This document shows, one piece after another, positions 996-5,869 of a DNA stretch of 24,230 nt. Under the pieces are notes generated by a model. The model searched no databases. It saw only the letters and a list, made by a program, of their open reading frames with translations, and was not told where the DNA came from. Source of the DNA: Candidatus Micrarchaeia archaeon (GTDB taxonomy: Archaea > Micrarchaeota > Micrarchaeia > Micrarchaeales > Micrarchaeaceae). A program made the translations under genes and the position numbers. Position 1 is the first letter of the stretch. Each line of letters starts with the position of its first letter. Location of the stretch: the NCBI GenBank assembly GCA_049964795.1, contig JBMFWY010000012.1:1-24230 (forward strand), read 5' to 3'.

Positions 996-1868
996 ATGAA
1001 CAGGATAGCCGCGTTTCTAAAGCTCACAAGAATAGAACACAGTGCAATGCTCGTTGTCGCAGTGATAGTGGCAGAAATAATAACCAAATCCATTCCAAGC
1101 GCCTTTGTGCTTCTGCTAAGTATTATCACCCCTATTTTCATAAGTATGGGCTCCTTTGCAATAAACGATTATTTTGACGTAGAGGCAGATAGGATAAACA
1201 AAAGATTTGACAGGCCAATAGTCTCCGGCGCAATCTCAAAGAATGCCGCTTTCGCAATAGCGATCGCCTCATTTGCAATAGGTATATTTGCGAGCCTTTT
1301 CATAAACTACATCGCCTTTGCAATAGCGCTTGTATTCGGTGTGCTTGCATTCTTCTATAGCTACAAGCTTAAGGATACACTGCTTTTGGGCAACGCTTAC
1401 ATAGCGCTTTCAATGGCAATACCTTTCTTCTACGGTGATTTTGTTGTTTCCGGCACGCTAAACCCCAACATTGCAATAATAAGCGTGATAATATTCTTGA
1501 GCGGCCTTGCGCGGGAGATACACGGGATGATAAGAGACTACGAGGGCGACTCTAAGGCACGCAAGTCACGTAACCTTCTTTCGCATGCAGGAAAAGCTGC
1601 ATCTTCGCTATTTGCGCTTTCTCTTTATCTAGCTGCCATCCTCCTAAGCATCTTTATGTTTTTCTATGAGAAACCGTTTGCATACAATCTTGCATATGCG
1701 ATCCCGATAGCCATTACTGATGCTTGCTTGTTGTATGTTTCAATTGCCTATCTCCGCAAAAATCTTTCAGCAAGCTTTTTCAGGATTGCCAGAAACCTTA
1801 GCCTAGGCGCAATGGCTCTTGCTCTTTTTGCATATTTGGCAGCTGCGCTTGCCTATGTGCCAATATGA
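996..1868 (+). CDS. UbiA-family prenyltransferase, probably digeranylgeranylglyceryl phosphate (DGGGP) synthase-like
   Basis: LKLTR N-terminus, NDYFDVEADRINK...RPIVSG motif, YSYKLK, second acidic motif REIHGMIRDYEGD, multiple TM helices. Confidence 0.85.
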   Translation: MNRIAAFLKLTRIEHSAMLVVAVIVAEIITKSIPSAFVLLLSIITPIFISMGSFAINDYFDVEADRINKRFDRPIVSGAISKNAAFAIAIASFAIGIFASLFINYIAFAIALVFGVLAFFYSYKLKDTLLLGNAYIALSMAIPFFYGDFVVSGTLNPNIAIISVIIFLSGLAREIHGMIRDYEGDSKARKSRNLLSHAGKAASSLFALSLYLAAILLSIFMFFYEKPFAYNLAYAIPIAITDACLLYVSIAYLRKNLSASFFRIARNLSLGAMALALFAYLAAALAYVPI

Positions 1869-1952
1869 GCCCATAAGCTCAAAGAGTAGAAAGCATACAG
1901 AGCAAAATAAAGTAATAAGTCCGCAGCAGAGCTTGCAGAGAAACTTTGCCAA

Positions 1953-2582
1953 TTATTGCTTTCCTTGCGATCTCTCGTCGACTCTTGCTTCGAATTCGTC
2001 AACAGAGTGCTTGAAATCCTCCTCGCTTTTCAGTTCTCCTCTTGCTTTTAGAACCTCTTTCGCAAGCACGTAATATATGAATGCAAGAGATCTCCTGCCC
2101 CTATTGTTTGAAGGTATTATAAGGTCGACGAACTTGGTAGAGTTGTCCGTGTCGCAGAGCGCAATTATCGGTATGTTTACCATGCTCGCCTCTCTTATCG
2201 CCTGCTTTTCGTTTCTTGTATCGCTAACTAGGATAAGCTTCGGTTCTATAAAGCCACTTTTGTTTGGGTTAGTGAATATTCCGGGAGCCACCCTACCCTT
2301 TATGAATCGCGCACCTATTATCTCAGCGAATTTACCCGCTGGCATTATCGCGTAAAGCCTTGATGCGGTAACTACAACGTCATTTGGATCGTAGCTCGCA
2401 ATCATTCTTGCTGCCGCCCCAAGCCTTTCATCTATTGTTTCAAGATCAAGAAGGTAAAGCCCGTCGTCTCTTGTTCTATATATGAATCTTTTCATGCCCG
2501 GGCTCTTGGTCCTGGTAGCTATATTTATTCCTACCTTTAGATAATCTTCCCTGTTTGCAACCATATTTTTTTCTTCAGCCAT
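1953..2582 (-). CDS. rpsB: 30S ribosomal protein uS2 (archaeal)
   Basis: MKRFIYRTRDDGLYLLDL, PGIFTNP, IPIIALCDTDN, DLIIPSNNRGRRSL motifs. Confidence 0.97.
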   Translation of the reverse strand: MAEEKNMVANREDYLKVGINIATRTKSPGMKRFIYRTRDDGLYLLDLETIDERLGAAARMIASYDPNDVVVTASRLYAIMPAGKFAEIIGARFIKGRVAPGIFTNPNKSGFIEPKLILVSDTRNEKQAIREASMVNIPIIALCDTDNSTKFVDLIIPSNNRGRRSLAFIYYVLAKEVLKARGELKSEEDFKHSVDEFEARVDERSQGKQ

Positions 2583-2608
2583 CTAATCACTTTTTGGGGC
2601 CGCCGAGA

Positions 2609-2621
2609 TTTTCAAAGCGCT
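2609..2621 (-). other. tRNA intron at 59/60 (AGCGCTTTGAAAA)
   Basis: Relaxed BHB (bulge-helix-loop): central helix TTCA/TGAA, 3-nt bulges AA|A and AA|T, outer helix is the T-stem. Confidence 0.82.
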
Positions 2622-2627
2622 TTTGAA

Positions 2628-2638
2628 TTCCCGCGGTT
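2628..2638 (-). other. tRNA intron at 53/54 (AACCGCGGGAA)
   Basis: Relaxed BHB: central helix CCCG/CGGG, bulges AG|A and AA|T, outer helix GA/TC. Confidence 0.82.
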
Positions 2639-2710
2639 CTCGGGTCGCTAGCACCCCAAGCTAGTAGCCTACCAAGCTAGCAGACGGCCCCATAACTAAA
2701 TCAATGTAAA

Positions 2711-2911
2711 TCATTTCCTCCCTAGCTCCATGAACTCGTCAATTACCTCTACATTGCTCAGGAACATTCTCCTGCAGCAGTACCTTTTCACTCCAAGGTC
2801 GTCAAGCACCTTGCCAGGCTCCTCCTTGTTCTTGTTGACTCTCCTGTCGTACTCTTCCCATTTGTCGGCTACGACCGCGCCACATGTAAAGCATCTCACA
2901 GGCATCATCAT
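2711..2911 (-). CDS. rpoN: RNA polymerase subunit Rpo10 (N)
   Basis: PVRCFTCG and [14 protein letters not shown] zinc-binding signature. The start may be the 2nd or 3rd Met. Confidence 0.97.
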
Positions 2912-2954
2912 GCTATCATCTAAAATATAATAATTGCAAAAAGCAAGGCAAATT

Positions 2955-3524
2955 TCACCTGTATGAAGTCTGGAATCTTGCCCTAGCTTTCGGCCCCTTG
3001 AACTTCTTTGGTTCCACCCTTCTGGGATCGTCTACGAGCAGCGATCTGTCATAGCGCAAGTATTCCTTCCTTATCATATCACTATCCGCATACTCTGAAA
3101 TTCCCTTTGCTATTGCGCTTCTAACCGCCTGCGCCTGCGCGCTTCTGCCTCCTCCATACACATTTACTTCTATGTCAACTCCTTTCGCAAGCTCTTTTGC
3201 AATGTTTGAAATATTAAGCGGCTCAAGCATCATGCTTCTGAACTCCCTTGGCTCTATCAAGCTTATATCTACGCTGTTTATCTTTATTCTTCCAGCGCCT
3301 TTTTTCACCACTGCTCTTGCCCTGGCTTCTTTTCTTTTGCTGGAGCCGAAAGAAACCTTATCTTTTCTCAAAACTTTCTTTTTTGGTCTTGCTGCGGTCT
3401 TCTTTTTCTGTGCTTCCTGGCTTGCATTATCTTTTCCTTCCGTTTTCGCTGAAGCTGCGTTCTCCGCTGGCTTCTGCGCTTGTGCATCTGCAATCTTTTG
3501 AATATCAACTTGATCAGCCATCAT
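2955..3524 (-). CDS. rpsI: 30S ribosomal protein uS9 with N-terminal extension
   Basis: [54 protein letters not shown]-like AGGTGA just upstream. Confidence 0.96.
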
Positions 3525-3529
3525 TTCAC

Positions 3530-3991
3530 CTAAAACTTGTCATACCCAAGCCTTTTTGAGAGCTCTCCTATTGTCATGTATCCTACATATATCTCTTTCG
3601 GATTTTTCTCCGCTACCTCTATCATTTTGGCCCCCTTGAAAGCTTCCGGCACCCCTATAAAAACCCTAAGGTTGTCATAAGCCCTCTTTCCATGCGGCTT
3701 TCTATATGGGAGCATGCCTCTTATTATCCTCTTAAGCAAAAGATCAGGGCGCCTTGGCCAGTACGGCGAATTGTCTGGGTCTACCTTGTTCTTGAGGTTT
3801 ACCCTGGTTTTGTAATTTTCTATTATACCGCTTTTTTTGCCGCTTATTATTGCGCTTTCTGCATTCACTATTGCGACTTTCTCTCCGTTGAGCGCCATCT
3901 TTGCCGCCTTGCTCGCAAGCCTCCCCGCAATCGCGTTCTTGGCGTCTATCACTTTGTAATCGTCAGCTTTTATTCTTTCCATGCAAACCAT
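3530..3991 (-). CDS. rplM: 50S ribosomal protein uL13
   Basis: VIDAKNAIAGRLAS, VNAESAIISG, PDLLLKRIIRGMLPY, LRVFIGVP. The start may be Met4. Confidence 0.96.
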   Translation of the reverse strand: MVCMERIKADDYKVIDAKNAIAGRLASKAAKMALNGEKVAIVNAESAIISGKKSGIIENYKTRVNLKNKVDPDNSPYWPRRPDLLLKRIIRGMLPYRKPHGKRAYDNLRVFIGVPEAFKGAKMIEVAEKNPKEIYVGYMTIGELSKRLGYDKF

Positions 3992-3994
3992 TTT

Positions 3995-4345
3995 TTATAC
4001 AATTATCTTAACCTTTTTTTCTTCCATGAGCTCTTCGAATTTTGCAATTTTAGAGCCGGACCTTTCCAGCTCCTCCTTGGCTTTCTTCGAATATCCCAAA
4101 GCGGCAATGCTTATCTTGTGGTTGAGAGAGCCTTCAGCAAGCACCTTGCCAGGCACTATCACAGAATCGTTTTCGCTAGTATACTTGTTTATCTTGTAAA
4201 TATCTGCGTCTTTCCTTTCTCTTGCTGGCACGTCTACAAGCTTTAGCAGCTTCTTTGAAAGCCCCACTTTTTTCCTGCTTGCGATATTACCTTCAAGCAC
4301 TGCTACCAAAGCGCGTATGTCGCCTCTTTCAACATTAGACTTCAT
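3995..4345 (-). CDS. rpl18e: 50S ribosomal protein eL18
   Basis: VIVPGKVLAEG, IAALGYSKKAKE; located between rpoD and rpl13. Confidence 0.92.
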   Translation of the reverse strand: MKSNVERGDIRALVAVLEGNIASRKKVGLSKKLLKLVDVPARERKDADIYKINKYTSENDSVIVPGKVLAEGSLNHKISIAALGYSKKAKEELERSGSKIAKFEELMEEKKVKIIV

Positions 4346-4361
4346 AATATCACATCTGCTA

Positions 4362-4464
4362 TGCGGGGGGTGAGATTTGAACTCACGCAGTCACTAAAGA
4401 CACAGGAGTTCTGAGCGCAAAGCACCTCAGTCCTGCGCATTTGGCCATGCTCTGCCACCCCCGC
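4362..4464 (-). tRNA. tRNA-Leu(GAG) with a canonical 37/38 intron (16 nt, 4409-4424); CCA not encoded
   Basis: Acceptor GCGGGGG/CCCCCGC+A, anticodon stem CAGGA/TCCTG, loop CT-GAG-G|C, long variable arm, T-arm GTGAG-TTCAAAT-CTCAC. The intron TGCTTTGCGCTCAGAA forms a full BHB (helix CTGA/TCAG, bulges GG|T and AA|C). Confidence 0.95.
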
Positions 4465-4477
4465 CTGCACAAATTGC

Positions 4478-5047
4478 TTACTTGACTCCTTTTTCTATTT
4501 CCTTTACGCCTTCAATTAATTTGCTGCAAGCTTTATTAATAATTTCCTTGGGTGGCATCTGGCCGAAAGACTCAACATAAAATTCAAACTTGTCTTCCCC
4601 TTTCGGTTCAAAGGTGGCAAGCCCCGGCTGGAACTTTGCATGCTTTAGTGCAGTTCCCAATACTGCCTTGCCCTCAAGCCTCAGCCTCTGCTCATTTGCA
4701 AGCTTCATTATTGGTATATTTTCGTTTGCTACTTTTACGTTTTTGTCAGGGCTTACCAAATCTCTTGAATATACTGTTTTCGGCCCTGTTGCTTCCAGCG
4801 TGAAGAGAATCTCGTCTTTTTCATCGTAGCCTTTCAAAGGTGTCACGATCGGAACGAGGCCTATCCTGTGTGCTATATACTCGTCGAACATAGAGCTGGT
4901 ATTTTCGTAAAAAGTTATTTTGTCTATGGCAAAGGTTTCTACGCTGTTTATGGCTGCCCTCCTAAGCGCATTGGCATAGGAGACGTCAACGTCATTCAGC
5001 ATGAACCTGAAAGCTTTTTCGCTGCTCTCTATAACCTTTATTTCCAT
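4478..5047 (-). CDS. rpoD: RNA polymerase subunit Rpo3 (D), short form without the Fe-S domain
   Basis: YANALRRA, ENTSSMFDEYIAHRIGLVP, GPKTVYSRDL, IPIMKL, HAKFQPG, FYVESFGQ. Confidence 0.96.
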   Translation of the reverse strand: MEIKVIESSEKAFRFMLNDVDVSYANALRRAAINSVETFAIDKITFYENTSSMFDEYIAHRIGLVPIVTPLKGYDEKDEILFTLEATGPKTVYSRDLVSPDKNVKVANENIPIMKLANEQRLRLEGKAVLGTALKHAKFQPGLATFEPKGEDKFEFYVESFGQMPPKEIINKACSKLIEGVKEIEKGVK

Positions 5048-5099
5048 CTATTCACTTTGCCGTCTTCTCCGGCTGCGATATTGGATTTATCCAAAAGGA

Positions 5100-5107
5100 T
5101 TTATAAA
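5100..5107 (-). promoter_or_regulatory. Putative TATA box for the rpoD operon
   Basis: TTTATAAA about 52 nt upstream of the rpoD ATG, in a divergent intergenic region. Confidence 0.45.
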
Positions 5108-5221
5108 TATGGTTGCTTTGCTGCTGCTTTGCGCAAAATGAGCCCAAACAAATAAAAACTATAAACTCCTTTATACCTTCAAGTATAAAAGATTTGTGGT
5201 AATAGGCAAGAGGCGCTGCGG

Positions 5222-5869
5222 ATGGCTTTCAGGGATATAATACTAGACGAATTTGAAAGGGGCTTACTCGGCAAGGGCCAATATTTGCAGACATACAAGC
5301 CCCGCCCTCACATTTCAGCCTCTAAAATCGAGGAGCACAATGACGTCTCATACATAGGCACAGGGGAGAAAATAGCATGCAAATACTTCTTGCCAATAGA
5401 CAAGAGGTATATAGGGGCCAAGGAGCTATCCTATGACCTTTTGCTTTCGCTCTACGAAATAAATTCGAAAAGCGCTTTCGCGATAAGGCTTTACAAAGAT
5501 TCAGGCAGCGCCACAAAGCTTGTTGACAATTACCTGGCAAGTTTGCGCCGCTTGAAAAAGGCAATCGTCGAGGCTAGAATTATAGGCATGCAGGACAACG
5601 AGGATACAAGCACGCTTGGCGATGTGCTCTCAATGCTTGCCAAAAGAAAGATAGAAATCTACGAAGCCGATCTTTTTGGTACAAGTACGCGCCATATAGC
5701 GCTCGACCTGCATACCGGGGCAACTTTCGACATACTTATATATGACAGGATTTACAAGCCAGGAGAGCTGGCAAACAAACTCACAGAAGAGCAATTCTCA
5801 AGATCTTATAATCCTGCGAGCGCAACTTTGCAAAGTGGTGCCACGGCAAATGCAAAACCTAAAGCCTAA
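5222..5869 (+). CDS. Hypothetical protein with CheD-like (CheD/YfiH/CNF1-type) fold, catalytic residues apparently substituted
   Basis: By-eye match to the CheD pattern: YIGTGE, LSYDLLLSLYE, AIRL, VEARIIG, IEIYEADLFGTSTRHIALDLHTG. Confidence 0.6.
   Translation: MAFRDIILDEFERGLLGKGQYLQTYKPRPHISASKIEEHNDVSYIGTGEKIACKYFLPIDKRYIGAKELSYDLLLSLYEINSKSAFAIRLYKDSGSATKLVDNYLASLRRLKKAIVEARIIGMQDNEDTSTLGDVLSMLAKRKIEIYEADLFGTSTRHIALDLHTGATFDILIYDRIYKPGELANKLTEEQFSRSYNPASATLQSGATANAKPKA

Follow-up and report, generated by a model that had tools for sequence, protein, structure and literature searches.

The locus described here raises the question of whether a 97-nt segment lying between two protein genes of a Candidatus Micrarchaeia archaeon encodes a functional tRNA and, if so, in which order two short introns located within its T-arm would be removed. 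The segment belongs to the window, i.e., the whole stretch of 24,230 nucleotides that was analysed (assembly GCA_049964795.1, contig JBMFWY010000012.1, positions 1-24,230). The source genome, designated G000, totals 724,721 bases, is divided into 34 contigs and has a completeness of 91.6%.

The predicted tRNA-Pro(GGG) gene and its boundaries

In the first-pass annotation, this segment had been read as a tRNA-Pro(GGG) gene with micro-introns at positions 53/54 and 59/60, the 24 extra nucleotides of the T-loop being divided into an 11-nt and a 13-nt intron around a 6-nt exon. Both parts of this reading have held up. Removal of the two segments gives a 73-nt RNA, this computed doubly spliced 73-mer is called tRNA-Pro(GGG), with a cloverleaf, by ARAGORN, and the same junctions are found in related genomes. 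The predicted gene, its parts and its neighbours, all on the minus strand, are as follows:

2595..2691, minus strand: tRNA-Pro(GGG) gene, twice interrupted, 97 nt; only copy in the genome
2639..2691, minus strand: exon 1, 53 nt, tRNA positions 1-53 (acceptor 5' strand, D-arm, anticodon arm, 4-nt variable region, T-stem 5' strand)
2655..2657, minus strand: anticodon GGG, from ARAGORN on the spliced form
2628..2638, minus strand: intron 1, 11 nt, at 53/54; exactly missing here in 23 of 56 orthologues
2641..2644, minus strand: 5' strand of helix 1, exon C48-G51, CCCG; identified by reading, with pairing predicted at a probability of 0.95
2630..2633, minus strand: 3' strand of helix 1, CGGG, intron 1 bases 6-9, then the bulge AA|U54; CGGG in 33/33 and AA|U in 32/33 intron-1 copies
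2622..2627, minus strand: exon 2, UUCAAA, 6 nt, T-loop positions 54-59
2624..2627, minus strand: 5' strand of helix 2, exon U54-A57, UUCA; identified by reading, with pairing predicted at a probability of 0.91
2609..2621, minus strand: intron 2, 13 nt, at 59/60; exactly missing here in 8 of 56 orthologues
2611..2614, minus strand: 3' strand of helix 2, UGAA, intron 2 bases 8-11, then the bulge AA|U60; all four pairs in 47/48 intron-2 copies
2595..2608, minus strand: exon 3, 14 nt (U60, T-stem 3' strand, acceptor 3' strand, discriminator A73)
2711..2911, minus strand: upstream neighbour, RNA polymerase subunit N (Pfam PF01194, E 2.2e-30)
1953..2582, minus strand: downstream neighbour, ribosomal protein S2 (Pfam PF00318, E 1e-20)

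The last encoded base of the tRNA is the discriminator A, CCA being absent from the 3' end of the gene. The gene is part of a same-strand run encoding an Rpo3/RpoD-like subunit, tRNA-Leu, an L18e-like protein, L13, S9, RpoN, tRNA-Pro and S2; the S2 start codon lies 12 nt past the tRNA-Pro 3' end, and S2 follows the gene in relatives too. The junction of intron 1 is unique by sequence. Owing to a run of A residues, that of intron 2 is fixed by sequence only within 56/57-59/60, and it is the helix geometry which picks 59/60.

It had been anticipated that standard scans would miss this gene, which proved true for ARAGORN and Rfam, the scanners tried. In its default mode, ARAGORN finds no tRNA in the window, and neither the precursor nor the two singly spliced forms are called tRNA by this program. 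Likewise, the Rfam tRNA model gives no match in the window at the gathering score and none at E<=10 between positions 2500 and 2800, while a genome-wide search at E<=1 returns 42 matches, the tRNA-Pro(GGG) locus not being among them. A search for an intact Pro(GGG) gene elsewhere, suggested in the first-pass annotation as a possible refutation, combined the tRNA search with BLAST. No second copy was found in this 91.6%-complete genome: BLAST with the precursor returns only itself, and the other Pro tRNAs are limited to Pro(CGG) on contig C2 and Pro(UGG) on contig C20. Of the 36 Pro codons in the six ribosomal-protein and RNA-polymerase genes that flank the locus, 10 are CCU or CCC.

Once spliced in silico, the T-arm of Pro(GGG) equals that of Pro(CGG), and the loop UUCAAAU is common to all three Pro tRNAs. 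The D-stem of Pro(GGG) contains a U10-U25 mismatch. By reading, the D-stems of Pro(CGG) (C2:11464-11536) and Pro(UGG) (C20:6687-6761) consist of one Watson-Crick pair (G11-C24) and a U-G pair. According to Fig. 1A of the ARMAN-2 study, the Pro(CGG) and Pro(UGG) tRNAs of that archaeon similarly have only one Watson-Crick pair in the D-arm (PMC3239211), a weakness thus shared with the source genome.

Another interrupted tRNA gene of the window, tRNA-Leu(GAG) by reading (4362-4464, minus strand), contains a 16-nt intron at the canonical position 37/38 with a CUGA/UCAG helix and an AA|C bulge. It escaped both the default ARAGORN run and the scan of the window with Rfam at the gathering score, is mislabelled Arg(cct) by ARAGORN when introns are allowed, and reaches 45.3 bits in the genome-wide covariance model search.

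Intron distribution, splice motifs and splicing machinery

When G000 and 60 relatives were searched at the DNA level, matches were obtained in 58 of the 61 genomes, and 58 candidate loci were parsed or fetched. A recognisable orthologue is present in 56 genomes, G000 included, which belong to two families (f1 and f3); among the 61 genomes, none was identified in G013, G017, G018, G037 and G038. The matches in G018 and G038 were rejected as orthologues, being Pro(CGG) and Pro(UGG) genes. Four configurations occur among the 56 orthologues: both introns in 27, intron 2 only in 21, intron 1 only in six and neither in two (G007 and G015). The own genus of G000 already contains two of them, with both introns in G001 and G002 and intron 2 only in G003 and G004. 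In every configuration, the junctions are identical in all orthologues. Since the same junctions recur in 56 genomes, intron-less genes included, this pattern is far beyond chance. The intron-less orthologue of G007 scores 45.2 bits with the Rfam tRNA model (cut-off 29) and is identical to the spliced G000 form at 66 of 73 positions, and single-intron orthologues are missed by Rfam at E<=0.01.

The stems have been maintained throughout. In the 50 orthologues analysed by script, the 17 base pairs that make up the acceptor, anticodon and T stems gave no non-pair in 850 cells, and compensatory double changes are seen at pairs 1-4 of the anticodon stem, at pairs 5 and 6 of the acceptor stem and at the first pair of the T-stem. 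With respect to the anticodon, GGG is found in 34/34 orthologues of family f1, and the orthologues of the sister family f3 (L065, L068-L088) are Pro(AGG) in 22/22 parsed. An A at position 34 is unusual for archaea. It has been noted in ARMAN-4 and ARMAN-5 (PMC3239211).

The introns themselves are mostly unique, with 32 distinct sequences among 33 copies of intron 1 (11-22 nt) and 37 among 43 copies of intron 2 (11-24 nt). An identical 13-nt intron 2 occurs in L053 (G022, family f1), L080 (G049, f3) and L078 (G058, f3), most copies being unique; its presence in two families could reflect ancestral retention, convergence or transfer.

While the interiors vary, the last six bases of the introns are fixed. 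In intron 1, CGGG is followed by AA (32/33) or UA (1/33) and pairs with C48-G51 in 33/33 copies, with a U-G wobble in two. In intron 2, UGAA (UGGA in one copy) is followed by AA, AG or AC and pairs with U54-A57 in 47/48; its 3' bulge, with the predicted cut, is AA|U in 42/48 and, in the remaining six, either AG|U or AC|U. The outlier is G030, whose intron 2 ends in ...UGUGAA, outside the helix-2 register. Each intron thus provides only the 3' strand of a 4-bp helix and two bulged bases, the 5' strand being exon. Judged from sequence, such an arrangement, in which 4 bp of helix lead, on the 3' strand, into a bulge of 3 nt to be cut between its second and third bases, is the one that would be expected for archaeal introns spliced by the endonuclease. 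In the RNA substrate crystallised with the ARMAN-2 endonuclease, a deoxy residue occupies the second bulged position (PMC12397907), which is consistent with a 2|1 cut.

On the 5' side, the motifs are looser. In G000, the distal helix h' amounts to no pair for intron 1 and one pair for intron 2, the strict hBHBh' form being found for neither, and both 5' sites are predicted to fall within hairpin loops (7 and 9 nt). Among the orthologues, h' reaches at least 3 bp in only 4/33 intron-1 and 9/43 intron-2 copies. As G000 has no distal helix, both of its introns are of the relaxed hBH, or bulge-helix-loop, type. The earlier description of 4-bp helices with 3-nt bulges cut 2|1 is thus valid for both helices and, with the cut as predicted, for the AA|U 3' bulges, but not for the 5' sites, which are in loops. 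In 16/33 copies, the helix-1 stem can be lengthened to 6 bp so as to cover the 5' site; in the sequence of G000 and G001, helix 2 can likewise reach 6 bp and cover the 5' site of its own intron. A single 24-nt intron and a composite motif in which the two outermost splice sites would be paired were also considered and were rejected from the sequence, C48-G51 being unable to pair with UGAA and no single deletion restoring a consensus T-loop.

The enzymes required are encoded by the genome. The splicing endonuclease (EndA) of G000 is a single protein of 389 aa, composed of an N-terminal domain and of two domains of the catalytic type (Pfam PF01974 and PF02778), which matches the ARMAN-2 enzyme (PDB 4FZ2/9W2K) over residues 2-389 (E 1.3e-170). 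9W2K corresponds to the ARMAN-2 epsilon2 enzyme-RNA complex (PMC12397907). Y160, K161, K228, H251, R275 and W384, six residues which have been named for bulge binding and catalysis (PMC12397907), are all identical in this alignment, and full-length homologues with 53-58% identity were found in 5/5 relatives tested (one of family f1 and four of f3). This full-length match agrees with the broad-specificity endonucleases which the first-pass annotation attributed to ARMAN-2/Micrarchaeota. RtcB is also encoded in G000 (E 2.3e-171). The relaxed bulge-helix-loop motifs would be cut by the three-unit epsilon2 endonuclease and the ends joined by RtcB.

These data can be set against two other readings of the locus. 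If it were a decayed, non-functional tRNA pseudogene with two T-loop insertions, neither its weak D-stem nor its recognition by no scanner tried (ARAGORN and Rfam) would be surprising, and a search for RNA sequencing runs on positions 1500-5500 of the window listed none. Such a reading is nevertheless very improbable. The gene is the sole Pro(GGG) gene of a genome in which CCY codons are in use, it has been kept in 56/61 genomes, its stems changing in a compensatory manner and no pair being broken, and its splice-motif bases are conserved within otherwise variable introns; as to the weak D-stem, it is common to the other Pro tRNAs of the genome and has been reported for ARMAN-2 Pro tRNAs (PMC3239211). 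It could also be proposed that only one segment is removed, or that other junctions are used, leading to a mature tRNA with an enlarged or different T-loop. In favor of this, the intron 2 junction is ambiguous over four positions, though the product is the same for all four. The proposal must be reconciled with relatives lacking each segment separately, exactly at the proposed boundaries, and with two lacking both; in addition, only the doubly spliced form is called tRNA and its T-arm equals the Pro(CGG) T-arm. It appears as improbable as the pseudogene. The locus is thus, with high probability, a functional single-copy tRNA-Pro(GGG) gene of a small, ARMAN-2-like archaeon of the Micrarchaeota type, whose transcription and junctions we infer from sequence comparison and whose two T-arm micro-introns would be spliced by the epsilon2 endonuclease of the genome together with RtcB.

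Relation to known tRNA introns

Although novelty had been implied for this gene, the same structure has already been described. According to the legend of Fig. 1C in Fujishima et al. (2011, NAR 39:9695; PMC3239211), the pre-tRNAPro(GGG) of ARMAN-2 (Candidatus Micrarchaeum acidiphilum) has introns at 53/54 and 59/60. It shares with the G000 gene the anticodon, the intron positions, the 6-nt middle exon and the epsilon2 endonuclease type. As far as text and legend allow a comparison, the two differ in that the ARMAN-2 motifs are called strict hBHBh' in the legend (PMC3239211), whereas both are relaxed in the source genome. The EndA of G000 is a close homologue of the ARMAN-2 enzyme but is not identical to it, which indicates a different species.

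The concept of ordered removal has been published as well: for archaeal tRNA introns, it is mentioned that the last motif forms only after the others have been processed (PMC3728597). Gene layout and ordered-removal concept being on record, the source-genome gene is a confirmation and not a discovery. In the sections of PMC3239211 that were accessible, no passage was found on the splicing order of pre-tRNAPro(GGG), and a literature search under the name Micrarchaeota returned no paper on T-loop tRNA introns. What is added here is the 56-genome breadth, the four configurations, the conserved six-base tail and the relaxed motifs of the source genome.

Several other systems show partial likeness. 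In vitro, ARMAN-2 EndA has been reported to cut a 13-nt hBH intron at 59/60 of pre-tRNACys (PMC3239211). In position, length and relaxed class, this pre-tRNACys(GCA) intron matches intron 2 of the present gene (PMC3239211; PMC3488258; PMC12397907). It differs in being found in another tRNA and, as a single intron, requires no refolding step. The multiple or "nested" tRNA introns of Thermoproteales (Sugahara et al., 2007, 2008, as cited in PMC3728597) resemble the present case by the occurrence of several short non-canonical introns, by a broad-specificity endonuclease and by a last motif which forms late, but they belong to another phylum and to an (alpha-beta)2 endonuclease architecture. Similarly, multi-intron pre-tRNAs of Cyanidioschyzon merolae include a 53/54 T-arm intron, and RT-PCR of intermediates has been reported to show an ordered intron removal correlated with motif stability (PMC3728597; PMC9602550). 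This organism is a eukaryote (a red alga), its motifs fold independently and, in the cases described, its introns are not adjacent.

Within the source genome, a genome-wide scan for T-loop introns gave 11 matches, seven tRNA-like and four chance-like, tRNA-Pro(GGG) being the only tRNA-like match with an intron at 53/54. Six more tRNA genes of G000 carry an intron at 59/60 (C2:~54670, C3:~1048, C6:~17854, C10:~23092, C18:~3657 and C18:~3979), namely Lys(CUU), Arg(UCG), Ala(GGC), Arg(CCU), Lys(UUU) and a Ser gene with a second intron. These introns form the helix UUCA/UGAA (UCCA/UGGA in Lys(CUU)), followed by a two-base bulge, AA, AC or UA, before U60. In the covariance model search, most of these genes are seen only as truncated matches ending at UUCAAA. 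The 32-nt T-loop introns of Lys(UUU) (C18:~3711) and Arg(CCU) (C10:~23146) differ at one base only, a near-identity which suggests, at the level of sequence, a recent transfer or conversion between unrelated tRNA genes. Intron transfer between tRNA genes has been proposed for Thermoproteales (Fujishima, 2010, as cited in PMC3239211). Other apparent interruptions include an 11-nt micro-intron of the loop type at 58/59 of tRNA-Leu(CAA) (C17:8430-8482, minus strand, and downstream), with a GUUC/GAAC helix and an AC|A bulge, a D-loop intron in Leu(UAA) (C3:27496-27599, plus strand) and, in a Val(UAC)-like gene (C25:~2832, minus strand), additional sequence separating the D-arm from the anticodon arm.

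Order of intron removal

A sequential pathway had been proposed on the grounds that the two splice motifs would be mutually exclusive and that the T-stem, which is the outer helix of intron 2, would abut the central helix of this intron only after removal of intron 1. Folding was computed with ViennaRNA at 37 C, a treatment which ignores protein, tertiary structure and growth temperature and which misfolds the D and anticodon region. In the G000 precursor, the predicted probabilities are 0.95 for helix 1, 0.91 for helix 2, 0.01 for the T-stem and 0.00 for the outer helix of intron 1. In the whole family, this last helix is only 2 bp long (A46-U55 and G45-C56), with predicted probabilities of 0.00-0.07. 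After removal of intron 1, helix 2 reaches 0.96 and the T-stem 0.90, the outer helix of intron 1 remaining at 0.00, and the AAU bulge sits, in the predicted fold, between the T-stem and helix 2. After removal of intron 2 instead, helix 1 is at 0.95, the T-stem at 0.02 and the outer helix of intron 1 at 0.07.

The shift of the T-stem from 0.01 to 0.90 agrees with the proposal that it abuts the central helix of intron 2 only when intron 1 is gone. Mutual exclusivity stands in part: the 2-bp outer helix of intron 1 does compete with helix 2 (probability 0.00), but the two central helices are predicted to coexist. Across the 27 two-intron precursors, ViennaRNA favours helix 1 (probability above 0.5) in 19 and the T-stem in four, and after in silico removal of intron 1, T-stem and helix 2 both exceed 0.5 in only nine of 27.

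From these folds, the following sequence of events may be envisaged. In the precursor, helix 1 would hold the 5' strand of the T-stem. Intron 1 would be excised and its ends ligated first, after which the T-stem could form directly under helix 2, giving a standard hBH substrate for intron 2. Removal of intron 1 before intron 2 is slightly favoured on this model.

The main alternative retains the same gene and introns without any obligatory order, either intron being removed first, or intron 2 preceding intron 1, as a relaxed enzyme would need only a 4-bp helix and one bulge. This alternative draws on the coexistence of helices 1 and 2 in the predicted precursor (0.95 and 0.91), on the persistence of helix 1 after removal of intron 2 alone and on the ability of the ARMAN-2 enzyme to cut bulge-helix-loop substrates, as reported (PMC3239211; PMC12397907). 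Moreover, relatives contain natural intron-1-only (six) and intron-2-only (21) genes, which implies that each of the two half-spliced intermediates is shaped like a substrate occurring in nature. It has to contend with the 3' bulge of intron 2, which in the precursor is predicted to lack a flanking outer helix, and with the fate of the middle exon: were both introns to be excised ahead of any ligation, the 6-nt exon would come free as a hexamer and be lost. Whatever the order, ligation must then fall between the two excisions. Overall, the absence of an obligatory order is a serious possibility, to which we give rather less than an even chance.

Under the preferred order, in which intron 1 leaves first, helix 1 may be seen as a timing device, intron 2 not becoming a substrate until exon 1 has been joined to the 6-nt exon. 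This function, taken together with the idea that the micro-introns have been gained or lost independently many times across the taxonomic order, including in the own genus of G000, is advanced tentatively, the combination being somewhat doubtful. If helix 1 were such a device, it would enforce a cycle of cutting, ligation, refolding, cutting and ligation in which loss of the hexamer is prevented. If such gains or losses were independent, the four configurations would constitute a natural series, usable to test the coupling between the endonuclease and RtcB.

For annotation, the consequence is that default tRNA scanners miss an essential gene, so that genomes of this lineage look unable to read CCU and CCC codons. 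For the family, the 56 orthologues and their four configurations provide a compact natural resource for studying what the epsilon2 endonuclease minimally requires of its substrate and how micro-introns turn over.
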